Origin: a virus
Taxonomy: Duplodnaviria > Caudoviricetes
Virus record (IMG/VR): IMGVR_UViG_3300025018_000147
Location: 7,403-71,402 of that record
Length of the DNA: 64,000 nt
Strand: one strand, 5' to 3'
Shown here: one piece after another, positions 799 to 60,581 of the stretch
Layout of the letters: every line of letters starts with the position of its first letter
Numbering within the stretch: the first letter of the stretch is position 1
The notes under the pieces: model-generated
Seen by the model: the letters and a program-made list of their open reading frames with translations, nothing else
Told to the model about the DNA's origin: nothing
Databases searched by the model: none
Made by a program: the position numbers and the translations under genes

Positions 799-3700
799 TT
801 AGAGCTGATCTAATACCCACTCTCCACTGGTAGCGGTAAGGATCTCATCGCTACTGTCCGTCAGTGCCGATAGCGGATTACCAAAGACATTGAGTGGATT
901 TTTGCTGATAAACGGTATCGACTCAAAGACCGAAGGCAAGGCATACACCGAAGCAAAGACCAGTGTCATGATCGCCTGGAAAGGTTTCTCCTTTACCATA
1001 TCTTTTATTGGTTTAAGTATACGCAGAGCATATTTACTGAACCAGATTAAACCAATCTGATTACCATATTCAATCATCTTGTGTGACGGAAGATTAAAGT
1101 TGACGAAATCATGCAGTACCTGAGCAACAGCCTCATTATGATCCATTTTCAGATCACCCTTTTCTACCGTGGTGTACTGCTTGTACATGATGTATCTACC
1201 GATGAAATCAGTCGTCTTCACTAAATTGTTGAGGATCTTATAGGATTGGGTGTCTTCAGCCATAACGATCTCCTTGCCTATGGTAGCGAGCTTATCCGGG
1301 GTATATTTAGCAAGCTGTTCTCCGAGCTGCTCAAACATACCTGGATAGGGCGACTGCACACTAGTAGTCTCGATATCATCAATAATTGACTGCATCAACC
1401 CTGCATCTACCACATCCGTTACTGGATTGAGTGCTATAGTATTCTCCAGTCGAACGATGTCATCCTTGATTTTTTGTGTTGTTTTGTCCAAGGTAACTTG
1501 AGTAAGCGTAGCCGTTGGTTTATGATTCTGTGCAGCGATGAGCTTTAACTTTGCCTGTTCAAGATTTTTCTTGTCAGTAACATAGCGTATAATGCCTGCC
1601 ATAGCTTCATTATGCCATTTATGAATATTGGCGTTAGTGACACCCTTAGCCTTACAGAAGAGCACATTACTGACGTAGTTACCAATTGTTACCTGTAGTC
1701 CACGAACAATGATATTGTTCTTGGCAACCTTAGTAGCCTGTATCATAAATTCTTCTACCTGCTTAGCTCGGGTAATACCCTTATTCTTGAAGATACTCTG
1801 AAAGATATTGACGATCATTTTCTCTATGAATGCTCTATCTTCCGGATTCTTATTGAACGCCTGAGTAATGCTGTACTTCCTGAAACCAAAGGCAAGATCC
1901 ACCACATCTTGAGCAACCATCATGGTATCATCTCCCCATATTTCAGCGATGTCTATTCTCGCTTGCTCAGGAAGCATGTAATACAGTTCCCGGTGCTTGA
2001 GATCTCTAGCATTAGGGCCGATCTCCACATAGTTACGAAACCGGTCCTTATATTCGCTATTGTACATGTCCTTCAGAGCACTAACCAATTCCCGGTTGAT
2101 ATAGGTAGTTCCTACCTTATCCAGTATCTGTCCAGCCATTGCCGACAACACTGCGTCATATTCGTTATGTTTTTTGAGGACATCATCCTTGGTATCCTCG
2201 TTCATCATGTAGCGATATTTGACAACATGCCCATCGGTATTTACCAGAGGAAGCATGGCATTACCATATTCCCTGTCTCTATTGTACGGCACCATTGGCG
2301 CATTGAATTGATCGTTAAGGGCATCCTGTTTCTTCTGTACTAGTCTTTTATGGTTTGCCCTGGCGTCAGTACCGTTATTATCTAACTGGGCATAAACATC
2401 GAATACATCGGTACCCTTATGCCCATTACCAGTAAGAGAAGCAATCGTTGCGTGCCAGTCATTGATACTGCCTGTATCTGAGGTATAGACATAAATAGGA
2501 GTCTGCTCCTTGTCATCCTTGTCCCGCTTGATGGGTAGCTTACTCTTGGTGTATCCTTGCGCTACAAGCTCTGCCTCGGTAACTGCATCTCCTGCTGCAG
2601 CAAGGATATTCACCTTGGTATCGGTAATTTCCTTGGTGTAGCCCTTGATGATCATATTAGGATTATCAAAGAACAGATCCTTCTTGGCTTGACGTTGGAT
2701 CTCCCTATGTTGAACCAAGACATCTCTGACTGCATCTGGATCTTCCTTTAACAGCTTTGTAAAAATAAGTTTATGGGAAGATGGGGTGAACTTTAGAGCA
2801 TACAGCGTAGCCAGCTTATCCACCAATTGCTCTGCTGCCAGAGCTTGTTCTGTAGTTAGTTTACCCTCATGCTTAGTATTCTTTAATGAACCAATAAGGT
2901 GTGCATTGAGTAGAGTGTTACCTTCCGTGGTTTTACCATGAGACATGTATAAACCAAGAGACTGCGCCTGTCTCTGATAGAAATTGATATGTGATTGGAG
3001 TGCCTTGTTACTCTTTATTAGACGAATGATCTCAAAGATTGCCGAGTCAAGAGTCTTCTCATTATCCATCATGGCAGTAATGTCGTTCATACTATAGTCT
3101 TCCAACAGAACAGACATATCTGTTTTGATAGCTCCCTTGAGAAGAGCTATCTTTTCAGTTGGAATAAGATCTCGTTGCCAGAGACTCTTTAAATGTTCCA
3201 TGTATGTGGACACTGCTTCCATACGTGCTTTATCAACAATGATGTCCTTGGTATTGATTAATCGATGTATTGGTGCAAGACGATCTGTCAGTCCTCGTAC
3301 CTCGCGAACGATGTATTTACCAAAACCCATATGAATGCCATCGATGTGATTACGAATATCCCGCATCATCTGTCCTGCCTTGGAATCTTGATCCTCCAAC
3401 ATAGCAGTCAGATTCTTTACAGTACGATTGACCTTACCTACCGGAGTCTTGGCAACAATAGCTTTTATCTTTTCGTTTGACCATTCAGCGATCTTACTAT
3501 ACGTACCATCATACTTATCCATGGCTTTACCGATCATGGTCTTGTGCTTGCTGTCTACTGTAGCCAGACGCATAGCTAGTCTCTCCAGTTCAGTAGCCAC
3601 ATTGTCCGTTGGTTTGCTTTTACCGTAGTTATTCATTACAACATCCATGATTCTGTTGAATAAATTAACTAGCGTTTCATAGAAGTTACTACCAATAATA

Positions 3701-6700
3701 CCCTGCCAAGTACCTCTGGTGAAGAGTGCTTTCTTTTTAGTATCAATGGGTAATCGAGCTAAAGCTCGAACTAGGTTCGGATCGGTTAAACCATGAGAAA
3801 TAAACTCATCCAGATGACTGGAGTATTTCTTGGTTTGCTTTAATCCAGTAGCTGTATTAACAGTCGTGACTTCTTTTACTGTTTGATTTCCAAAGATATA
3901 ATCCCACTTCGCCTGTGCCTCGGGAGTAACAACACCTGTTGGATCGTCGAGGAAGTCTTCCGGTCGGATTACCTCTTTTGCCATATCATAGAGCACTTGT
4001 GCTTGACGATTCAGATAAGAAGACATCTTCAAACCAGAATGTGTAATCGCATGAATAAGCTCATGGATGTATACCTGTTCTGCTGGAGTATTCGGATCAA
4101 GTCCCATGGCTTGAGCACGAAGGAATATTTTGTTCTGTTCCGGAACGAAGACACCATTCGTATTATTTGTTACTTGGGTCTTCAGGTAGAGATCAACCGG
4201 ATTCATTACCTTAGTGAGAATATTATTCATGATATGGCGCAGATGACTATCATGGGAATCGGTTACTCTATCGAGTCCTATAGTCTTCAAGCGATCATAC
4301 ACACCTACTGCATTCTCTTGGTTTAATTCGATATGTTCATCGTATTCATTTGAATCCAGGGATACTGGATCATCCGCATTACCAAGTACAGTATGCGCTT
4401 CACCCTCTGTGCGAGATTGCATGGATACATAGGTATCCCTTGCTGCATAGTCATAAGGCTTACGGGAAACAACAGGTTTATTTGGTAATGTATCACTGAC
4501 ATAGGTTGGATAGCTACTTTCCCATAGGTCTGCTATCTCATCAGCAGATTTCTGCATAGCCTCTATTACAGCTTTCTGTGCAGTTTCCGCTTGTGCATCA
4601 AGAGTAGAAGTATCAATTGCTGCAGGCTCAAATGATCCTTTAACCTCTTTAGGCTTAGCCTTTTTCTTGGTTTTGGGTACTGTATAACCTTTTGGTCCCC
4701 AATTATAGTGGTTCAAGCCAGTAACCATATCCATCAAGATAGCTTTATTCTTTACAGCTCGATCTGCAATATCGTCCATACGAGAAGATACTATTTGTGC
4801 AATTATCTCTTCATCAGAGAGTTTGGATTCTGGTTGTGTTTCTCTAAATTCATATATTACTTTATCATAAGGCCGTACAACTGTTCCATCAGATTTTGTA
4901 TATCGAGAGATACCTATTCGTTGAAATTCTGCCAGCATATCTAAAGCAAACTGTATCTTGCTGTCTTCATCAGTGATATTTGTTTCCTTGAATTCATTAA
5001 AAGCAGCAATAGTCTTGTGCAACGATGCATTCACTTCATGCGGAATACTGTAGTCTCTGAGTGTCTCAAACATGATCTCATTGAGTGCTTCATTCAGAGC
5101 AACTACTCCATCAATACCTGTGTAGAAGCCGTCATGTACATTCAGTATAGCTATCCCTCTACGCTGCATAAGCGTAGATATACTAGCATCCACCATCTGT
5201 GTGAGTGCTACCATCGGTGACACACCAACAGAACCAAGAATACCCTTCTCAGCAAGATGACTGGACTTCTTATGGAGTTTCTTAGATGCATATTGTTGTT
5301 CAACAGATTCACCGGTATAGCTCTTGGTAGGATCTTCAGTAGCCATATCCAACAGACCACCTTCAAACGGAGTAGCTACCGATGGGTACATATCTTTAAG
5401 CTGTTCGTCTATCTCTGCGTACTGTTCCTTGGATAAATCAACATAATGGTCTACGTCTTCCTTTGTCTTTTTATTTTTCTTTATGTAGAGTATACCTAGC
5501 TGCTTTGCATCGATGAGTTCCTGCTTCTTCTTTGCTACCAGATGAGCACGAACTACATTGTATAGAGCTGCAGCCACATTCATAGAATTGTTTACGGCAT
5601 TCTTCGCATATTTGATATTGCCGTAAAGCTCGTCTATACCATTGACTAATGCTCTACCATGATTTGCTTCAATATGATTGTGAATAGCTGCTTTTGTAGC
5701 ATCTGGAAGAGTGAGTTTCAATACGGCTGCTGGAATGAGTACTCCTTTACTATCTTTGAGTTTATCCACATCCACGGTAAACACATTTTTTGCGTCACTG
5801 TTTAGAGGGAGATTAGCTAATCTTCGCATATCATCAACTAAGTTGATAAGATCGTCTATTTTATTGTTCGCTGCTATGTCTTCCAGTTTAGCTGTGAAGA
5901 TGTCTTCTATGAGTGTTCTGGATAAACCATTGATAATAGATTCTTCTCCTGCGCTATAGCCGGTTTGCATTACCGGATCTTTCATTAACTTTCGTAGTGT
6001 ATCAGTAGCATACCCGTCATTATCCACCATGGAACCAAACAGTCTTTCCGCAATATGCAATCGAGTTAATTCTTGCTTAACTGCCCTGCTTCTTGGAGAA
6101 TTCTCATTTTTGATTTCATTAAATTCATCAGTAAGTACTTTCTCTCTTGCCAGGAGTGCTCTCCGCCAAGCAATACCTCCTGATTTGTACACATCCATGT
6201 TCCATGGTTTTTGGAGATGCTTGGCTACTTCTCCCTGCAGTTTATCAAAAGAGAAACCACCATTACGTAAGGCAAAGAGTATTTCCGGAGAGATATTATT
6301 GACCAGCATCTGTACCATCAAGATTACCGGACCATTAGACATACCATCTATTTCTATAGGAATATCTGTTGTAAATTCCAGAATGTTATTACCATGCAGA
6401 TTTGACTGATCTGATTTAGCTCGCATATAACGAGTGTACTCTACAAGACCTTTCAGAGTACTTATCTTCTTACCACCAGCACGAACACCAGTCATGATAT
6501 CATCAAGAGCTTGTGGGTGCTTTTCACCAAGCTCGGCGAGAGCTTCCATGTCTAATTCCTTAGAACCAGTAAAATTAAGCAGTAAGTCTATTGCTGCTCT
6601 AGCCTTGAAAAATACTTCCTTCTCCATAGCTTCTTTGACTAAGCGAAGTACTTCATCCTTGCCGCCTTTCTTGCTATGCTCTAAACCAATAGACAAAGCT

Positions 6701-9700
6701 ACTGCATCGAGGAACAGTGTCTCCTTGAATGTTTCGATTTCGTTATCACTATCGAGGGCAAAGGTAGATTTCCACTCAGACATGGTAAAAACATATCTGT
6801 GAAACTTATCTCCCTGTGAATTTATTTTTCCTACCTGGTGTACCCGTAAATTCTTGACTATTTTAGCCGGGATATAGAAGAGTGATTTAAGTCCTTTAGG
6901 CTGCTTTGCAGCCTCTTCCATCCAATCCAGCCAAATATCTAAAGAACGCTCTCTATCCTTATTTGCACTTGCAATAGATGCTGCTTTAGAGATGTGTTTC
7001 TTCGATGGATCTTCATTACCAATGAGTTCCAGTAAACGCTTTCTACCAAACAGCATAGCTATGTTTGCTGTGTTATGGCTCAGTTCGTAGCTTTTGTTCA
7101 CATTGTTTATGACTGCTCTGCTTTGTGCTACTGTAGCCAGATTCTTCGTCTTTTCTATAGCCATGCGAAACTTCTTACCAATCTTATACTTCTCCCAGGA
7201 ATGACCTTCCTTGGCAGCTTCACCAGTAAACAGTCTATCCCATAGCTTTGGTGATGCTTTCCAGGCTTGCTGGATACGATATATTGGTTCTATTGGTTTA
7301 CGTTCTTGATTCTGTTTACCCGGTACTGGTTTAGCCACTTTGACATGGTAAAAATTGCTCTTGGTTTTACCGTTGTTTGCTTCATTTCGATTATGTGAGG
7401 TAAAGAATTTATTACTTGAACGAGTGATCTGTCTCAGCGGATTACTTGTTATTCTTTTTTCATAATCCAGATCATCCAAGACGCTTTGTTTCAGTCCCTC
7501 TATACCGAAAGTACCGGGAGCAAAATCCTGTTTAGCAGTCTCTGAATATAAACCAGTATACGCTACCTTCTGCTCTACCATGTTCATCTCTTCTAAGGTA
7601 GCCAGTGCAGTCATAGCCAATGCTCGTTGCATACGTTCAGTGTAGTCTACAGGTGCATCCTTTGTCGTTGTGATGCCTACAAGTTTAAGAATGTCTCTAC
7701 CAAGAGTTTCAATAAGGAATGTCTCTGATACACCGATATCGTGCAGAATACTTCTTGCTTGAGCATTGAGTTCAGTGCCATCTTTTAAACCAAGAAGACT
7801 GGTCATAGCCTTATCTTCATTCTCCAGTGTTCCTTCACCTTGGGTAGCCAGCCACTTATAGGTAACTGTTGCCATGGCTCCACGGACATTCTCCGGGATA
7901 ATTCCATCAGGAGCGAACCATTGTAAGAAATCCTCATAGTAAAACATCTGTTTAGACTTCGGTTTAAACACTGATTTCTGTACTGTTTCACTGAAATATG
8001 AAGCATACCTTTGCATATGGTCAAGCATGAATCTATCATCAGCAGTGACGAATCGTTTACCGTTAAAGACAGAAGTTAGTTCTGCCAGCTTACCTTCAGT
8101 AATGAGTTGTTTCAATGTCGGGAAGAAGTTATCGATCATCTGCAGGACATTGTTCTTGGCGTTACCTGCTGCCTGGAAGAAATAGTGCAGAGGATTAATG
8201 GTCTGATAGTCTTTTGGTTTGAGTTTATCTACTGGAGTACTATTCTCGGGAAGTGTGGTCAGATCCTTTGCTACGGGAGATTTACGGTAGAGTTCTACAG
8301 GAGCTTCCTCTTCAACTTTGTCGCTCACTTTTTCAGTATTCTGAGCCTCAACCGTATTTGTCTCTATTTGCTGAGACTCAACGAGAGCTGCAGGAGTTTT
8401 TTCACTTGGTTCAACAGGTTTATCGACCGATACATTATCCCCGAGCTGCTCTGTTGAATCTTTTTGAAAAGTCTTTGCATAGACACTTTCAATAGCTTTT
8501 TTACCTACAGTACTAAGTTTTCTAGTACCTATACCTGCAAAATTAGGGGTAAGAATAGGCGTATCTATTTTCTCCCAACCTTTATTACTTTTCTTGAACC
8601 AAGACTCTTTAGTCTGATCGAAAACATAAACAGGTTTTCTTTCTCGAATAGCCATAGCTACAGCGTAGCCAGTACCACCATCTGTGTATTCGCCCTTAAT
8701 AGTTCCTACGGCAAAGACGGCATCAGCGTTTTTAACCTGCTGCCAGTTACGGGCAAGCAGCCCTTGTACATAAGGCTTGTTACTCCAGTATTTACCTAAA
8801 TCTTTAGCTGCCTGTTTAGCTTTAACCAGACCTTCTTTAAGCTGTTCTGGTGTAATTTTTACATTACCCTTGGGAGTTTTATCTTGATAGTAATGATTAC
8901 TGATAACTCCGTAGGGTTTGCCTACATCTCCCCAAGCAGAATCCGAACCAAGAGCACCTCCTGAATGATTGGTGTATTTTACTGTTTCTGGTGTAAACTT
9001 TGTTTGAGTATTGCTTGGAGTTATTTTAGGTTCAGTATTCTCTTCTGTCTTTTCTTTTGTATCTCCCTGCGTTCCTTGAGATATACTTCCCTCTTTTCCT
9101 TGAGGGTTAACCAAGACAGTGGTTTTGGCAGCAGTCGTATCGGCCACCGTATTTCCAGTCGCTTGAATAGAATCATTTATTTCTCCTTCAACGGTAGGAA
9201 TTTCATTTTCATAGGAATCTACTGGTGGACCTTCCGGTATAACATCTACCTGTTTAGGAGCTGTATTTGCTGTTGTAGAAGGAGTTACCTCCTCGGCAGT
9301 AGGATTGGGTGTCTTGGTTTGCTCTTGTCGTACAGGAACTGTTATAGGTGATTTCCTGCCATACTGAGGAAACAACCCATTAGCTACAACGACTGCTTGT
9401 TCCAGCGCATTAGCTTCTTCTTCAATATCATTGAGAGTATTCAACCAACCTTGTGTATTTGGATTGATATCATAAGGCTTACCCCCGCGTTGTTTCGCTA
9501 GTTTGCCATTAAGCAGAGCTACATCTTCCGGATTACGCGGTATGCCCTTAGCGTCTGCTTCGGTAAGTCTACGTAGTGTACTAGCCTTAATACGATGCCC
9601 AGCAGCAAAAGAAGACAGCCCATCTAATGCTTTAGCGGCTGCGGGTTCATTCGTTGCTTTTAGATTCTGTGCTATACTGCTTATATATGAATTAATACCA

Positions 9701-11970
9701 ATGAAACCATCACTCTTGATACCAGTAAAAACATCTGCCTTGACATGTTTACTGGTTTTATTGGCTTGGTTAATTTTCTTGGTTTTATCCGTTATTTGCT
9801 GCTCGAATTTACCAAGAGTATTCATTTCCTCGACTAACTGTTTTGTTTCCGGAGAAGTATGAGGATTGCTACGTATGGAATTTAAAGTAGAACCAAGAAC
9901 TTTAATATTCGTCTTACCCGTGTTTTCGTAGATATCCTTAATGATACTACTGATCTCTTCCGGATCTTTACTATTGGCTTTTTCCACTACCTTATCAAAG
10001 ATCTCCGAGACAGTCATCTCTGTTGGATGCATGGCTTTAATGGTACGATCCATGTATTCCAGGGTATCTTCTGATTTAATGATTTCAGTGTTCAGCTCTT
10101 TACGTCTGGCAGTCTCCGTAGCACTGAGTCCTTCGGGAGTCTTGGATTTTTCAGTAAGAACATCTATCTCTCGATACTTCTCCCCGATAGTGCTAGTGTG
10201 TCTACCGTACACTTTCACTGCTTGTTCAAGATTATTGAACTTCTCTTCCGAAGTAACATTTTCTCTATCAGAGAATTTCTTCAGACTATCAATAGCAACT
10301 ACCGGATCATAGTCCTTGCTGGTTGGATCGATGAATTTTGTGATGTCTCCTGTCTCTTCAACCTCTTTCATCCTAGGCTTGTAGGTAGGACTGGCAGAGG
10401 TACGATTAATGTTTTCTTCTTGCTTCTGCTCGGGAGTCTTCTCTTTGAATGCACCAGTTATAGCTTTACCGGTACCCTTTACAATAGCAGAACCAACAAG
10501 ACCAACTCCTGCTGCCCCAAGTATTGCTGCTTTAGCTGCGGTTGTACCGACAGATGCTGCCGGCCCCATACTTCCACCGATAGCTGCGCCAAGACCTGTC
10601 TGCAGCAGAGCACTTTCAGTAGAGTCTACTGGTTTAAATTTAGAGGTATAGTCCTCGATGATGGATTGAGCACCTTCGGTTAGACCTTCGGTATGGGTGT
10701 TTACTACTCCAGCACCGAGCTTTTCAGTAGCTTTCATGGCTACCCTGGTGGTGAGCTTAGGAACACCCTCAGCAGCTTTATTGAGCTTATTCAGAAGCAT
10801 CTTCCCGCCCTTACTGGCACCACTGATAGTATAGTCGGAGAACATATCCAGACCGCCTGCGGCGTATGCCTGAGTCTTAATAGAAGATCTTTCCTTATCG
10901 GTAGGAATTCTACCCTTCTCGGTGATGAAAGACTTATAGGCATCTGCCTCTATCTGACCGGCTAAACCAAGAGATTCCAATGCACTCGCAGCAAGACCGG
11001 TTTTACCGAATCCAGCCAGCATAAGATCAACTGCTTCAGTGGATAATAACTGTAGAGCCTCGGTAGGATTCTTTGCCATCTCAAAGACAGAGCGAAATAC
11101 AGTATCAAGTACAGCAGGAGTACCTTTGACTAAACCGACAGCATAGTTGCCTTTAGAGAAATCATCCTTGGCGGCATCAGTCGCAGATACATTTTCCTTT
11201 GCTATCTTGCCGATACGTTCTTCCATCTTAGCACTGAGTGCTGGATTAAAATTCTTGGTTCCAGAGAGTACCTCATCAAATCCTTTGACCAGATCATTCG
11301 CCTTACCCGCGTAATAGTTCCCTCGTTCAATGAGTGTGCGGTTGCTTGAGTGTATTGGTTCAGGCGTACTCATTACCCCACTATCAAGTACTTTCGATTC
11401 TTCCGGAGTGAGTTTGTTCTGCAGCAGCATTGCTTTGAATTCAGCCTGCTTTTGTTTTACCTCTCCGGGAGCAAGCTCATTCTTTACCAGCATATCGGCA
11501 AGTTTTGCATTAAATTGTGGGGTAATACTCTCAAGCTCTTTGTATTTCTGTTCCTTCTGGTATGCCTCAATTGCCCCGTCTTCGATATAGCTACGGGCAT
11601 CACTGCTCAGGATATTCGGAATATAGCTTGCACCTCTGCCAGCCATTTCCGCAGCGTTCATTTTCAAACCTGCACCGATGTTCTTTACTTTAGGCCAGAT
11701 TCCACCGTATTCCAGATCTGCAGTGGTGACTGCTTTACCAGCATTCTGGGCACTGTTCGGATCGAACTTATCCGCTTCAAACTGGAGAGACTGTTGTATG
11801 TTTTGGTTCTGACGGAGTTGATCCTGCTCGTAACGTTTATTGATTGTTGCCAGCAGATCTGAACCACCCATATTGAGTTGTTTTTCTTTAGTAGCTGAGA
11901 CAAGGATTTTACTCTTTGCCTCAGTCAATGACGGTTTGCGTTCTTCTTTTATATCGTCAAAACCATACAT
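799..11970 (-). CDS. Virion-encapsidated RNA polymerase (N4 gp50-like), 3723 aa
   Basis: Single-subunit RNAP motifs A (IEIDGMSNG), B (RKLMKDPVMQTGY) and C (NVHDGFY); giant size; nearly Cys-free (one Cys seen by eye); N4-type synteny; contains an HExxH motif (HELIH) and a SLOG-like insert. Confidence 0.95.
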   Translation of the reverse strand: MYGFDDIKEERKPSLTEAKSKILVSATKEKQLNMGGSDLLATINKRYEQDQLRQNQNIQQSLQFEADKFDPNSAQNAGKAVTTADLEYGGIWPKVKNIGAGLKMNAAEMAGRGASYIPNILSSDARSYIEDGAIEAYQKEQKYKELESITPQFNAKLADMLVKNELAPGEVKQKQAEFKAMLLQNKLTPEESKVLDSGVMSTPEPIHSSNRTLIERGNYYAGKANDLVKGFDEVLSGTKNFNPALSAKMEERIGKIAKENVSATDAAKDDFSKGNYAVGLVKGTPAVLDTVFRSVFEMAKNPTEALQLLSTEAVDLMLAGFGKTGLAASALESLGLAGQIEADAYKSFITEKGRIPTDKERSSIKTQAYAAGGLDMFSDYTISGASKGGKMLLNKLNKAAEGVPKLTTRVAMKATEKLGAGVVNTHTEGLTEGAQSIIEDYTSKFKPVDSTESALLQTGLGAAIGGSMGPAASVGTTAAKAAILGAAGVGLVGSAIVKGTGKAITGAFKEKTPEQKQEENINRTSASPTYKPRMKEVEETGDITKFIDPTSKDYDPVVAIDSLKKFSDRENVTSEEKFNNLEQAVKVYGRHTSTIGEKYREIDVLTEKSKTPEGLSATETARRKELNTEIIKSEDTLEYMDRTIKAMHPTEMTVSEIFDKVVEKANSKDPEEISSIIKDIYENTGKTNIKVLGSTLNSIRSNPHTSPETKQLVEEMNTLGKFEQQITDKTKKINQANKTSKHVKADVFTGIKSDGFIGINSYISSIAQNLKATNEPAAAKALDGLSSFAAGHRIKASTLRRLTEADAKGIPRNPEDVALLNGKLAKQRGGKPYDINPNTQGWLNTLNDIEEEANALEQAVVVANGLFPQYGRKSPITVPVRQEQTKTPNPTAEEVTPSTTANTAPKQVDVIPEGPPVDSYENEIPTVEGEINDSIQATGNTVADTTAAKTTVLVNPQGKEGSISQGTQGDTKEKTEENTEPKITPSNTQTKFTPETVKYTNHSGGALGSDSAWGDVGKPYGVISNHYYQDKTPKGNVKITPEQLKEGLVKAKQAAKDLGKYWSNKPYVQGLLARNWQQVKNADAVFAVGTIKGEYTDGGTGYAVAMAIRERKPVYVFDQTKESWFKKSNKGWEKIDTPILTPNFAGIGTRKLSTVGKKAIESVYAKTFQKDSTEQLGDNVSVDKPVEPSEKTPAALVESQQIETNTVEAQNTEKVSDKVEEEAPVELYRKSPVAKDLTTLPENSTPVDKLKPKDYQTINPLHYFFQAAGNAKNNVLQMIDNFFPTLKQLITEGKLAELTSVFNGKRFVTADDRFMLDHMQRYASYFSETVQKSVFKPKSKQMFYYEDFLQWFAPDGIIPENVRGAMATVTYKWLATQGEGTLENEDKAMTSLLGLKDGTELNAQARSILHDIGVSETFLIETLGRDILKLVGITTTKDAPVDYTERMQRALAMTALATLEEMNMVEQKVAYTGLYSETAKQDFAPGTFGIEGLKQSVLDDLDYEKRITSNPLRQITRSSNKFFTSHNRNEANNGKTKSNFYHVKVAKPVPGKQNQERKPIEPIYRIQQAWKASPKLWDRLFTGEAAKEGHSWEKYKIGKKFRMAIEKTKNLATVAQSRAVINNVNKSYELSHNTANIAMLFGRKRLLELIGNEDPSKKHISKAASIASANKDRERSLDIWLDWMEEAAKQPKGLKSLFYIPAKIVKNLRVHQVGKINSQGDKFHRYVFTMSEWKSTFALDSDNEIETFKETLFLDAVALSIGLEHSKKGGKDEVLRLVKEAMEKEVFFKARAAIDLLLNFTGSKELDMEALAELGEKHPQALDDIMTGVRAGGKKISTLKGLVEYTRYMRAKSDQSNLHGNNILEFTTDIPIEIDGMSNGPVILMVQMLVNNISPEILFALRNGGFSFDKLQGEVAKHLQKPWNMDVYKSGGIAWRRALLAREKVLTDEFNEIKNENSPRSRAVKQELTRLHIAERLFGSMVDNDGYATDTLRKLMKDPVMQTGYSAGEESIINGLSRTLIEDIFTAKLEDIAANNKIDDLINLVDDMRRLANLPLNSDAKNVFTVDVDKLKDSKGVLIPAAVLKLTLPDATKAAIHNHIEANHGRALVNGIDELYGNIKYAKNAVNNSMNVAAALYNVVRAHLVAKKKQELIDAKQLGILYIKKNKKTKEDVDHYVDLSKEQYAEIDEQLKDMYPSVATPFEGGLLDMATEDPTKSYTGESVEQQYASKKLHKKSSHLAEKGILGSVGVSPMVALTQMVDASISTLMQRRGIAILNVHDGFYTGIDGVVALNEALNEIMFETLRDYSIPHEVNASLHKTIAAFNEFKETNITDEDSKIQFALDMLAEFQRIGISRYTKSDGTVVRPYDKVIYEFRETQPESKLSDEEIIAQIVSSRMDDIADRAVKNKAILMDMVTGLNHYNWGPKGYTVPKTKKKAKPKEVKGSFEPAAIDTSTLDAQAETAQKAVIEAMQKSADEIADLWESSYPTYVSDTLPNKPVVSRKPYDYAARDTYVSMQSRTEGEAHTVLGNADDPVSLDSNEYDEHIELNQENAVGVYDRLKTIGLDRVTDSHDSHLRHIMNNILTKVMNPVDLYLKTQVTNNTNGVFVPEQNKIFLRAQAMGLDPNTPAEQVYIHELIHAITHSGLKMSSYLNRQAQVLYDMAKEVIRPEDFLDDPTGVVTPEAQAKWDYIFGNQTVKEVTTVNTATGLKQTKKYSSHLDEFISHGLTDPNLVRALARLPIDTKKKALFTRGTWQGIIGSNFYETLVNLFNRIMDVVMNNYGKSKPTDNVATELERLAMRLATVDSKHKTMIGKAMDKYDGTYSKIAEWSNEKIKAIVAKTPVGKVNRTVKNLTAMLEDQDSKAGQMMRDIRNHIDGIHMGFGKYIVREVRGLTDRLAPIHRLINTKDIIVDKARMEAVSTYMEHLKSLWQRDLIPTEKIALLKGAIKTDMSVLLEDYSMNDITAMMDNEKTLDSAIFEIIRLIKSNKALQSHINFYQRQAQSLGLYMSHGKTTEGNTLLNAHLIGSLKNTKHEGKLTTEQALAAEQLVDKLATLYALKFTPSSHKLIFTKLLKEDPDAVRDVLVQHREIQRQAKKDLFFDNPNMIIKGYTKEITDTKVNILAAAGDAVTEAELVAQGYTKSKLPIKRDKDDKEQTPIYVYTSDTGSINDWHATIASLTGNGHKGTDVFDVYAQLDNNGTDARANHKRLVQKKQDALNDQFNAPMVPYNRDREYGNAMLPLVNTDGHVVKYRYMMNEDTKDDVLKKHNEYDAVLSAMAGQILDKVGTTYINRELVSALKDMYNSEYKDRFRNYVEIGPNARDLKHRELYYMLPEQARIDIAEIWGDDTMMVAQDVVDLAFGFRKYSITQAFNKNPEDRAFIEKMIVNIFQSIFKNKGITRAKQVEEFMIQATKVAKNNIIVRGLQVTIGNYVSNVLFCKAKGVTNANIHKWHNEAMAGIIRYVTDKKNLEQAKLKLIAAQNHKPTATLTQVTLDKTTQKIKDDIVRLENTIALNPVTDVVDAGLMQSIIDDIETTSVQSPYPGMFEQLGEQLAKYTPDKLATIGKEIVMAEDTQSYKILNNLVKTTDFIGRYIMYKQYTTVEKGDLKMDHNEAVAQVLHDFVNFNLPSHKMIEYGNQIGLIWFSKYALRILKPIKDMVKEKPFQAIMTLVFASVYALPSVFESIPFISKNPLNVFGNPLSALTDSSDEILTATSGEWVLDQL

Positions 11971-57373: not shown

Positions 57374-58447
57374 CTAGTGTAAAGTAATAACAATTTTGCT
57401 TTCATTTAGTGTGGCAATTATGTTTCTCCACCTGAAAATTGCTGATAATAAGTCTACGTCAGTATCATGATTGATACTAACGCTTATGCTTATCTTACCC
57501 GCAGCATCAAAGGTGTATGTTACATTACTGCCCGAATACATTGCTGTGTCTACCAGTACTTCAAGTATGTTTGCTGCACCTACCTGCGTTGAGTAAGCCA
57601 TATCTTTAAAAATACTACTTTTAACGGCTGTATCAAATAATTCCTGTATAGCACTACTGATAGCGGTATTACTATCTGTAAGTATAGTAGTAATATTAGC
57701 TATTCTTGTTAAAGAATCAAATCCAGCAGCACTTTGTGCAGTGTTACTTATCATGCTTGCTGAATCAAATAATCTGTACAATGCATTATATATATCTGCT
57801 TGTGTATCCGCATACACTGTAACGACATTACCACTATTAACAGAACTATCCGCATAATATGTAATAGCATTTACAATAGAACTTTGTAGATCTCTCAAAC
57901 GAATAATACTATTAGCGGTATGCGCTTTACTGTCTATTCTAGTCTGCTTTAGTACATGATTTACTAAAAGCGTATCCGCTATTGATTTACGCATACGAGA
58001 TATTGATATACACACATCAGAAAGAATACTCCGCTTATTGTGAGTATTCACCTGGCTATCAAAAGTAACAGCAACACTCCACTGCGTTAATGCAGTGACA
58101 CTGGTATCCACATATCTATTGAGTGTATTTGCAATACCTATACTGCTATCGGTTACATTCTGTTGTGTGTTACTTACTTTAACTGTGCTATCAAATATGT
58201 CTAATACGTTATTGCTAGCTCTTACCCTGGTGTCAGGAGTAGTGATCTGAGCAACATGTATAGAGGTAAATGTGCCATACTCCCTTTGTCGAAGTATGCT
58301 GATAGCTGCATTTGTATTAATAGCTATAACCGGTTTATTGGTTATAGCCATGGTACTATCAGAAGTATATCCTACGACAATACTGATATCACCCGTAGTA
58401 AAAGGTGCTGAACCAAGAGAACTCTCTGCTAGTGCTCCGTAGTTCAT
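57374..58447 (-). CDS. Virion protein with degenerate D(S/T) beta-repeats
   Basis: Repeated DS/DT...I.N pattern; tail-module context. Confidence 0.55.
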   Translation of the reverse strand: MNYGALAESSLGSAPFTTGDISIVVGYTSDSTMAITNKPVIAINTNAAISILRQREYGTFTSIHVAQITTPDTRVRASNNVLDIFDSTVKVSNTQQNVTDSSIGIANTLNRYVDTSVTALTQWSVAVTFDSQVNTHNKRSILSDVCISISRMRKSIADTLLVNHVLKQTRIDSKAHTANSIIRLRDLQSSIVNAITYYADSSVNSGNVVTVYADTQADIYNALYRLFDSASMISNTAQSAAGFDSLTRIANITTILTDSNTAISSAIQELFDTAVKSSIFKDMAYSTQVGAANILEVLVDTAMYSGSNVTYTFDAAGKISISVSINHDTDVDLLSAIFRWRNIIATLNESKIVITLH

Positions 58448-59025
58448 TACTCAACCCACGCGGGTAACAAAGTGAGAAGATCATTGACAGAGGTAATAGC
58501 AACCGTACCTGCTAAGGCATCAGCCAGTATCTGCCGTGCTGCTTCCCATACTTGGACATTCCATGCCCATACATTAGTACAGAATGTTTGATGAGTATAG
58601 CCGCTTACAGTGGCATAATTAGCACAAGAATGCGCATCGCTAAATAGAGTATTATTAGCTGTGTTATATGCGTCGATAGGTGCTTGAATATAAGCCACTA
58701 CAGCAGATTCACAATGCTGTATTAATACTTGTTGCTGGCGTAGTGTTTCTGACACAATAGCCGCATCAACTTCTTCTTGAATGCTATATTTATTAACAAT
58801 ATTCCATGAACGATGATAGGTATTATTTACTTTAATCAATTCACCCGGTTCAGTATTCTGTAGTATTGTCACATCTGGTCGGGTTGTTTCTATAATAGGA
58901 TAAATATTAAATTGGATTACATCTTCTGCTGTCCATCCTTTACGCATTGATGTGTTTAAATATCCAGGTACTCTACTTCTGGTGAGTTCCTGTGCTGTGT
59001 TTTCTGCATACCATTTCTCTGCCAT
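58447..59025 (-). CDS. Tail fibre assembly chaperone-like protein
   Basis: C-terminus ...WN..VW....QIL.....G......LL..LP.WVE; directly downstream of the RBP/DGR cassette. Confidence 0.6.
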   Translation of the reverse strand: MAEKWYAENTAQELTRSRVPGYLNTSMRKGWTAEDVIQFNIYPIIETTRPDVTILQNTEPGELIKVNNTYHRSWNIVNKYSIQEEVDAAIVSETLRQQQVLIQHCESAVVAYIQAPIDAYNTANNTLFSDAHSCANYATVSGYTHQTFCTNVWAWNVQVWEAARQILADALAGTVAITSVNDLLTLLPAWVE

Positions 59026-59036
59026 TATGCGTGTCC

Positions 59037-59072
59037 TTATGAAAAGGTGTATAAATTATTGTATCGTATCAT
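59037..59072 (-). pseudogene. Stub of a DGR reverse transcriptase (MIRYNNLYTFS*)
   Basis: Sits at the canonical RT position after the TR and spacer; resembles the M(K/I)RYxNLY N-terminus of DGR RTs; truncated after about 9 codons. Confidence 0.65.
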
Positions 59073-59185
59073 AGTATTTACTTATGAGTCCCGGAATCTT
59101 CGGTTTCCCTACCAATACCTATGGGACATTCTTTTATATTTTGCCAAGAGGCATGGTCTTATGTCTGTACAACTTTAATAAGTAG

Positions 59186-59299
59186 AGCTGGCTGCTGATA
59201 TTAATCGAATCATTCGCTGAATCATTATTCAGATTCCAATAGAAAACCTCGGTATTCAAACCATTCGAGGTATTCCCGCTGAGTATACCTACCTGCCAA
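59186..59299 (-). repeat. DGR template repeat (TR)
   Basis: Gap-free 114-nt match to 59353-59466 with 23 mismatches, all at TR adenines. Confidence 0.93.
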
Positions 59300-59342
59300 T
59301 GAGGCATAAAACCGTATCTTTTATACTGTGTGCTACATGAAT

Positions 59343-60581
59343 TTAGTACGACAGCCGGCCGCCGATATAAATCGAAGCACCCGCCGAATCATCATTCAGA
59401 AGCCAACAGAAAACCCCGGCAGGCAAACCATACGAGGCAGACCCGCCGAGCATACCCACCTGCCAACCTGTACTCTGGTAATAATAATCAGGTATATAGG
59501 TGCTATCCGTACCACCGACACTGGCAGGTAAGAACCCCCGTGACTGCGCTTCGAGAGTTTTTACCCACCCGTTTGCGTTAGCTAAAGTTATGCCTAAACC
59601 AGTGTAATTTGTTGACGTATCATCGGCAAAATTATAATCGTCGTTACACACATAAGGGATATTCCCATTGATGTTAATACCATCAACCCATTTAAATAAA
59701 TTACCAAAGAAATTTTCAATACCCCGGTACGTCATGTACGCTGCATTGGTATTTCCACCTACACTGTTTGTACCATTACCATCACTGTTAGATTTACCTG
59801 AAACACCTATATAGGAGTCTTTTATCCATGTTCCTCCAGATATCTCAGTTCTACCTATGCCAATCATAGCTTGAGAGTTCCAGTTAGCGTACTCGACTAT
59901 ATAGAGCAACTGTACCGCAGAGACTAAATCATAATCCTGTTGTCTCCAGCCAGCTCCTCTATTTGCAGCGATAGTGCGAAACTCTGCTCGTGTTTCATCC
60001 ATCATCGGAGCCTTACCGGACACAGAGCCTAACTTGTCATTAGCCAGGTCTATAGATCCTCCCGCCCAGTTATTTGCTAACCCGGTACCGCAGTCAACAT
60101 AGCTGCTCGTTCCTGCGTCATAACCAATACCCTCGTATGCACCTATGTAACGATGCTCTACTGCTTCCCCATTCTTCATAAATGCAGGATGCAACGTATA
60201 TCCAACTTCCTCATAGGTTGCTATTTCCCATGTATGTGTTGTACCGGAGTAACTATATTTATAATAAAATGCAGGTATCTCTACCATCACCTGACCGTCA
60301 GCACCTGTCAGGTTAGCAGCAGTGACACCATCTTCTTTGAGTGTGGAATCATCCGCATCCAAGTAATATTGCACAACACCCGCATCACTTAAAATACATC
60401 TCCGCATTAAAGCATGTACAGGTAGCAGCTCATTGGATAGAGATGTGCCTACTGCCTGTCCTGCTGTATCCCCGGTTCTAGTATAGCCTCCAGTCGCTTG
60501 AGACTCATCCCAAGACACGCCATAGGTGGACATTACAGGACCACTTTTACCGCCTGATGCCAGTATTTTTAATATACTCAT
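59343..60581 (-). CDS. DGR target: receptor-binding tail protein with a C-terminal C-type-lectin (Mtd-like) fold
   Basis: YRGIENFFGNLFKWVDG; ends GG.A..G..AGVF.W.LN.DS......IGGRL with the VR in the last ~40 codons. Confidence 0.85.
   Translation of the reverse strand: MSILKILASGGKSGPVMSTYGVSWDESQATGGYTRTGDTAGQAVGTSLSNELLPVHALMRRCILSDAGVVQYYLDADDSTLKEDGVTAANLTGADGQVMVEIPAFYYKYSYSGTTHTWEIATYEEVGYTLHPAFMKNGEAVEHRYIGAYEGIGYDAGTSSYVDCGTGLANNWAGGSIDLANDKLGSVSGKAPMMDETRAEFRTIAANRGAGWRQQDYDLVSAVQLLYIVEYANWNSQAMIGIGRTEISGGTWIKDSYIGVSGKSNSDGNGTNSVGGNTNAAYMTYRGIENFFGNLFKWVDGININGNIPYVCNDDYNFADDTSTNYTGLGITLANANGWVKTLEAQSRGFLPASVGGTDSTYIPDYYYQSTGWQVGMLGGSASYGLPAGVFCWLLNDDSAGASIYIGGRLSY
59353..59466 (-). 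repeat. DGR variable repeat (VR)
   Basis: Codes WQVGMLGGSASYGLPAGVFCWLLNDDSAGASIYIGGRL; pairs with the TR. Confidence 0.93.

Follow-up and report, generated by a model that had tools for sequence, protein, structure and literature searches.

The DNA analysed here, referred to as the window, is a stretch of 64,000 nucleotides (nt) corresponding to bases 7403-71402 of a 71,402-nt IMG/VR record (IMGVR_UViG_3300025018_000147), which CheckV rates as 96% complete. All genes of the region considered lie on the minus strand. The cassette opens with the DGR target gene (59343..60581), which encodes a 412-aa tail protein matching phrog_5302 'tail protein' (E=2.6e-93) and carries the VR (59353..59466) within its last ~38 codons. 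The non-coding TR (59186..59299) lies 43 nt past the target stop codon; a sequence-only reading of this DNA had placed it correctly behind the target but put the distance at ~45 nt. A spacer of 113 nt (59073-59185) separates the TR from the ATG of an ORF of 11 codons, MIRYNNLYTFS* (59072..59037; ATG ATA CGA TAC AAT AAT TTA TAC ACC TTT TCA TAA), and reading the minus strand at these positions bears out the earlier description of an 11-codon stub that follows the TR and spacer and precedes the next gene. This next gene, w192 (58447..59025), starts 11 nt beyond the stub ORF and encodes a 192-aa protein with no match in Pfam or PHROG; it serves below as the right-hand synteny anchor.

The TR and VR align over 114 nt without gaps and differ at 23 positions, all 23 of them TR adenines (23 of the 33 present), and none of the 81 non-adenine positions is mismatched. 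This is a textbook DGR pair, with every mismatch at a template adenine. A GC-rich stretch, GGCGGCCGGCTG, which may be an IMH, is found at the end of the VR, and the TR has AGCAGCCAGCTC at the corresponding place. A hairpin downstream of the VR was not detected, as DNA folds of the window and of two related cassettes (L114 and L001) were no better than those of shuffled sequences, and a scan for promoters and terminators found nothing exceeding shuffle expectation. The window TR is homologous to the TRs of L114, from which it differs at 25 of 114 positions, and of L001.

The closest relatives of the target (L001-L003, L083-L088, L090, and L097; 64-75% amino acid identity) are followed directly downstream by a TR, an RT-17 RNA, and a reverse transcriptase (RT) of ~350 aa. 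Target homologues with an intact C-terminus are also found in L092, L094, L095, and L096 (61-68% identical), with no TR, spacer motif, or RT nearby. The target family thus ranges from intact cassettes (L001, L087, L088, L090, and L097) through the half-cassette of the window to DGR-free genes (L092 and L094-L096). The genes flanking the cassette in L001-L011 are unrelated to those flanking it in the window, and searching IMG/VR for backbone relatives by w192, w357, and w321 returned none or distant mosaic matches. The profile of the target-gene family matches the DGR variable protein TaqVP (PDB 5VF4; E=5e-7) at profile positions 151-293, upstream of the VR. The window target protein has no match to the Pfam family FGE-sulfatase, and an AlphaFold2 model built from a 13-sequence alignment reached a mean pLDDT of 46 and was unusable. 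A CLec fold of the target is therefore suggested only indirectly, through the family profile.

Spacer RNA and host phage

The spacer contains an RT-17 RNA (Rfam RF03020; 59072..59158, minus strand) scoring 41.8 bits, above the gathering threshold of 40.4 (E=5e-7). The match covers model positions 1-95 of 95 and ends at the ATG of the stub, and its score falls at the low end of, yet within, the range seen in intact cassettes (41.3-60.2 bits). [quoted passage not shown] Scanning IMG/VR for the 22-nt core of the spacer motif returned 47 viral stretches, 46 of which carry an RT homologue downstream, usually 50-130 nt further on and typically starting M-K-R-Y/H-x-N-L-Y/F. This survey confirms the statement in the sequence-only reading that DGR RTs typically start M(K)RYxNLY right after such a spacer. 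While the fold of the whole spacer RNA was uninformative alone (z = -0.7), the Rfam covariance model provided the useful test. The motifs RT-1 to RT-19 adjoin RT genes, and their membership in DGRs was only speculated upon when they were described (Weinberg et al. 2017, PMC5737381). Like the known RT-17 motif, the window copy is a full-length match above the gathering score and sits directly upstream of an RT start codon; unlike in the usual setting, it is orphaned, the RT behind it being gone.

Other sequences in the same communities carry parts of this RNA. A contig of depth 93 in sequencing run X1, from the probable source sample, and a 10-kb contig (depth 24.6) in X4 share only 28 nt of the RT-17 5' hairpin (window 59133-59160). 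These contigs belong to another element, probably another RT-17-type DGR in the same communities.

The phage itself, which comes from groundwater, encodes a 3,723-aa ORF whose match to phrog_2206 'virion RNA polymerase' scores 1,206 bits, and its portal and major head protein have matches as well. Judged by the giant virion RNA polymerase and the 71.4-kb record, where ~70 kb is expected, the phage is N4-like (Schitoviridae). Among GenBank phages, the region has no DNA relative beyond a 96-nt patch in Psychrobacillus phage Perkons. The large RT-17 records L053, L039, L044, and L077 gave no match to phrog_2206, a weak negative, as the control was silent too. The virion RNA polymerase (window 799-11970, minus strand) further holds a DprA-like segment at residues 996-1129 (phrog_768, E=2e-8).

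Loss of the RT and its companion ORF

No gene for an RT or Avd was found in this phage. Neither PF00078 (RT) nor PF05635 (Avd) has a match anywhere in the 71,402-nt record, of which the 7,402 nt beyond the window were covered too, and tblastn with the RTs of two relatives against the record gave a best E of 0.07. These searches uphold the earlier statement that the window lacks both genes, and extend it to the rest of the contig, where an intact RT would have meant a split cassette. Merely eight RT codons are left in the 71.4-kb record. No accessory gene of the Avd type is encoded, and the 99-aa ORF found behind the RT in relatives, here called orf99, is deleted save for its last three codons.

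What the locus looked like before the loss can be seen in L114, a Logan contig whose order is the 3' end of a VR, a TR, an RT-17 RNA, an RT, a 99-aa ORF, and, directly behind the RT-orf99 pair, a homologue of w192 (P0002, 60% amino acid identity). The L114 RT has 351 aa, starts MIRYNNLYSKIY... / MIRYNNLYSKIYAMEN..., and matches PF00078 at 51.6 bits and phrog_1423 at E=7e-118; its first eight residues, MIRYNNLY, are those of the stub. On one side of the gap, window 59429-59049 aligns with L114 1-383 at 81% identity (E=2e-99), up to exactly RT codon 8, and on the other side, window 59060-58505 aligns with L114 1688-2242 at 65% identity. The DNA homology between the window and L001 likewise ends after RT codon 8 (alignment A1). 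As L114 has the RT start and the orf99 ending ..YYTFA* at the two edges of the gap, the stub is a chimera, in which RT codons 1-8 (59049..59072, minus strand) continue in frame into the final three codons and the stop of orf99, T-F-S-* (59037..59048, minus strand). Given this alignment and the RT starts of the survey above, the match of the stub to the RT start is not due to chance.

The two parts meet at a shared TAC (59049-59051, minus strand). In the window, the sequence left of the joint is ...AATAATTTATAC and that to its right is ACCTTTTCATAAGGAC. The 5' end of the L114 RT reads ...AACAATCTATAC on the left and TCTAAG on the right, and the 3' end of the L114 orf99 reads ...AATAATAAGTACTAC and ACCTTCGCATAAGGAC. 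AATAAT occurs near the joint on either side, and TAAGGAC follows the orf99 tail in relatives as it does in the window. The Shine-Dalgarno-like AAGGA of w192, spanning the stop codon of orf99, has been retained. The deletion removed ~1,316 nt, joined at the shared TAC, and the exact ancestral sequence at the joint can only be approximated, because the DNA identity to L114 is merely 81% in the cassette and 65% in w192.

The syntenic L114, which matches the window on both sides of the gap and holds the RT and orf99 between the same neighbours, shows directly what had been proposed earlier, a deletion of the RT that spared the TR and spacer. The proposal needs amending in two respects. The stub was called an RT remnant, which fits codons 1-8, while T-F-S-stop comes from a second deleted gene, orf99. 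Moreover, the clade was without Avd from the outset, but it has the conserved 99-aa ORF behind the RT, which was deleted as well.

In relatives, orf99 is conserved behind the RT (L001-L003, L083-L087, and L065; 56% identity), and its start overlaps the RT stop codon. Its C-terminus reads ..YYTFA* in L114, ..YYTFT* in L001, and ..YYTFS* in L087. No Pfam family matches it, and the one PHROG match, to phrog_19665, is weak. From its position, orf99 may represent a candidate new DGR accessory protein of this Avd-less clade. The coordinates of the ORF are 1412-1711 in L114, 3350-3643 in L001, and 7577-7870 in L087, giving products of 98-99 aa that end ..KYYTF[S/A/T]*.

Independent assemblies contain the same junction. 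In X1, the probable source sample, one Logan unitig of 1,898 nt (depth 31) is identical to the window over 58510-60407; a 563-nt Logan contig from X2, a different sample, runs through the joint and matches 58558-59120 at every position; and an ENA contig of 801 nt seen in two samples (L115) is 99.9% identical to 59234-58434. Both the X2 and the ENA contig extend 31 nt or more beyond the joint in either direction. The contigs of X3 and X4 stop short of the joint and TR, and the X4 strain is ~5% divergent. Because independent assemblies from other samples share it, the RT-less junction is not an assembly artefact; the concern that the assembler had collapsed an RT-containing path does not hold at this junction, where the X1 unitig, the X2 contig, and the ENA contig are all RT-less. 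X1 also contains a low-depth (2.6x) variant contig over 59270-59367, from the end of the VR to the start of the TR, with seven substitutions, small indels, and a divergent TR; a related cassette or strain thus coexists in the source sample.

The TR/VR pairs also bear on the timing of the loss. Within the partial VR of L114, the two TRs differ at seven positions where neither TR base is A; at these, the window VR follows the window TR in seven of seven cases and the L114 VR follows the L114 TR in six of seven. Since the window VR follows its own TR, which is 22% diverged from that of L114, the comparison shows mutagenic homing to have been active in the window lineage after its split from L114 and until shortly before the loss. 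By the same kind of evidence, the last homing, and hence the deletion, is recent relative to this split, because TR and VR mismatch at 0 of 81 non-A positions although the TRs differ at 25 of 114.

Frozen remnant or use in trans

Taken together, these observations make it very likely that the locus is the DGR cassette of an N4-like phage that recently lost its enzymes. The ancestral minus-strand order was a tail-fibre target with a C-terminal VR, a TR, an RT-17 RNA, an RT of ~351 aa, a translationally coupled 99-aa ORF, and w192. Through a single in-frame deletion of ~1.3 kb, RT codon 8 became linked at the shared TAC to the fourth codon from the end of orf99. The RT was lost in this event together with orf99, which is a candidate accessory ORF; the target with its VR, the TR, the spacer RNA, and the sequence around the ribosome-binding site of w192 survived. 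As the phage genome is without an RT, the VR would now stay at the last sequence it acquired, with the TR and spacer as relics too young to have decayed. Since an encoded RT, the defining requirement, is missing, the cassette is better described as a DGR remnant, or as a DGR that is potentially non-autonomous, than as a DGR.

The second of these labels points to a rival reading, in which an RT made by another element in the same cell uses the TR and spacer and rewrites the VR; that element could be a prophage, a DGR of the host, or a co-infecting phage whose spacer is of the RT-17 type. The cis parts are all intact, with 0 non-A mismatches between TR and VR and an RT-17 match above threshold, and a cassette used in trans would look the same; yet a recent loss accounts for their intact state just as well. 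Both the TR and the spacer are located within the tail operon with no terminator-like site and would thus be transcribed, and RT-17 is common to DGRs whose RTs are only ~50% identical, making cross-recognition conceivable. When supplied in trans on a plasmid, the avd, TR, and brt of Bordetella phage BPP-1 are functional, and constructs deficient in the RT are open to trans complementation (PMC5758913). Use in trans was also considered by Paul et al. for partial DGRs that lack an RT (PMC4372165). The other RT-17-bearing element in run X1 (depth 93) and X4 is a candidate source of such an RT. Against use in trans, the VR is invariant between samples wherever contigs cover it, those of X2 (59378-59466) and X3 (59408-59466) being identical to the window, although contigs drop rare variants. 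The clade-specific, co-transcribed orf99 has also been lost. N4-like phages are not known to have a prophage state, so such a phage would need a compatible RT to be present already in each host cell. Rewriting of the VR by such a foreign RT is thus judged unlikely. The stronger version, in which a strictly lytic N4-like phage keeps just template, spacer RNA, and target and borrows the RT of a resident or co-infecting DGR recognising RT-17, the cassette being a working non-autonomous DGR, is judged improbable. If true, diversification of the tail fibre would be confined to hosts supplying the RT, and the unrelated stub cassette of L048, described below, would suggest that this strategy has arisen repeatedly, not that such cassettes have decayed more than once.

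Two further readings dispute the loss itself, and both are very improbable. The RT may never have been present, the module of target, TR, spacer, and eight RT codons having been recombined from a DGR-bearing phage. The cassette is mosaic, given the unrelated flanks in L001-L011 and tail-region neighbours in the window without close IMG/VR relatives, which would suit such an acquisition; against it, L114 shares w192 (60% amino acid identity), the TAAGGAC context, and the orf99 tail, so that the RT and orf99 must once have lain between the same neighbours. Alternatively, an RT may be present and have been missed, either through assembly collapse at 59040-59050 or because it lies on the unsequenced ~4% of the genome. 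The lack of terminal repeats in the record and its completeness of 96% leave some room for this idea. Against it, the depth-31 unitig of 1,898 nt crosses the whole cassette unchanged, the X2 and ENA contigs cross the joint, and in the 46 related stretches with an RT this gene sits directly downstream of the spacer, not elsewhere. Among 5.8 billion proteins, the only RT more than 70% identical to that of L114 is its own entry, the next being 70% identical, and no RT-bearing sibling allele was found. As between a frozen cassette and one used in trans, the evidence leans to the frozen one, pointing to a recent and probably terminal loss of the RT.

Known systems and other half-cassettes

Several known systems resemble the cassette in part. 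The DGRs of crAss-like phages (crAssphage LMMB, 'lineage 3'; PMC7290462) likewise comprise a target with VR, a TR, and an RT without avd at the end of a tail block, and the GenBank or named RTs closest to that of L114 come from crAss-like phages (cr52_1 and others) and from Psychrobacillus phage Perkons, at ~52% identity. Incomplete cassettes with a truncated RT, with or without VR and TR, occur in 73% of the crAss-like genus I genomes examined (PMC7290462). Unlike these, the window phage is N4-like, with its 3,723-aa virion RNA polymerase, its RT is cut to eight codons by one clean in-frame deletion that left TR and spacer untouched, and its clade has the extra 99-aa ORF behind the RT. The prototype, BPP-1 (mtd-avd-TR-brt), differs in that the window has no Avd, no RT, a spacer RNA of another family, and no hairpin detected downstream of its VR. 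RT-less loci with marks of adenine mutagenesis have also been described in DUSEL4 Nanoarchaeota and read as fossils or trans targets (Paul et al. 2015, PMC4372165). These partial DGRs share with the window cassette the missing RT, the adenine marks, and the dichotomy of fossil or trans use that the sequence-only reading had likewise proposed, whereas the window keeps its TR and spacer and its genome holds no RT.

As biology, the cassette is ordinary, a recently decayed known system that is unusually well resolved, because incomplete DGRs and the fossil-or-trans question have already been published (PMC7290462, PMC4372165). Modest extras are that the host phage is N4-like, that the RT-17 RNA is orphaned, and that a candidate accessory ORF was lost too, and in the literature searched, no report was found of a DGR-derived receptor-binding gene in an N4-like phage. 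The locus is a cleanly resolved snapshot of the death of a phage DGR, in which one microhomology-mediated in-frame deletion took the enzyme genes and left every cis element intact, caught so early that VR equals TR outside adenines. Surveys starting from the RT gene miss such half-cassettes, and a natural substrate with only template and spacer could be used for testing whether DGR RTs act across elements.

A second, unrelated RT-less cassette of the same design is found in L048:8713-9160 (IMGVR_UViG_3300033553_000804). Here, the VR (8713-8834) and TR (8880-9001) have 18 of 20 mismatches at TR adenines, and the RT-17 match of 45 bits is followed by an 11-codon stub, MKRLGILHIQL*, and then by an unrelated ORF; the 34-kb provirus record (44% complete) has no PF00078 match. 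In L052:4347-5338, the RT behind the RT-17 spacer seems frameshifted, as tblastn returns two pieces in different frames, which may be due to a sequencing error or to DGR decay by a different route. Finally, the RT of L040:3983-4990, and likewise those of L038, L044, L047, L051, L069, L071, L074, and L079, contain four in-frame TAG codons and end in TAA, with one TAG taking the place of the Gln in YLSQ of the L114 RT. This suggests that the large contigs with such RTs are TAG-to-Gln recoded phages carrying DGRs.
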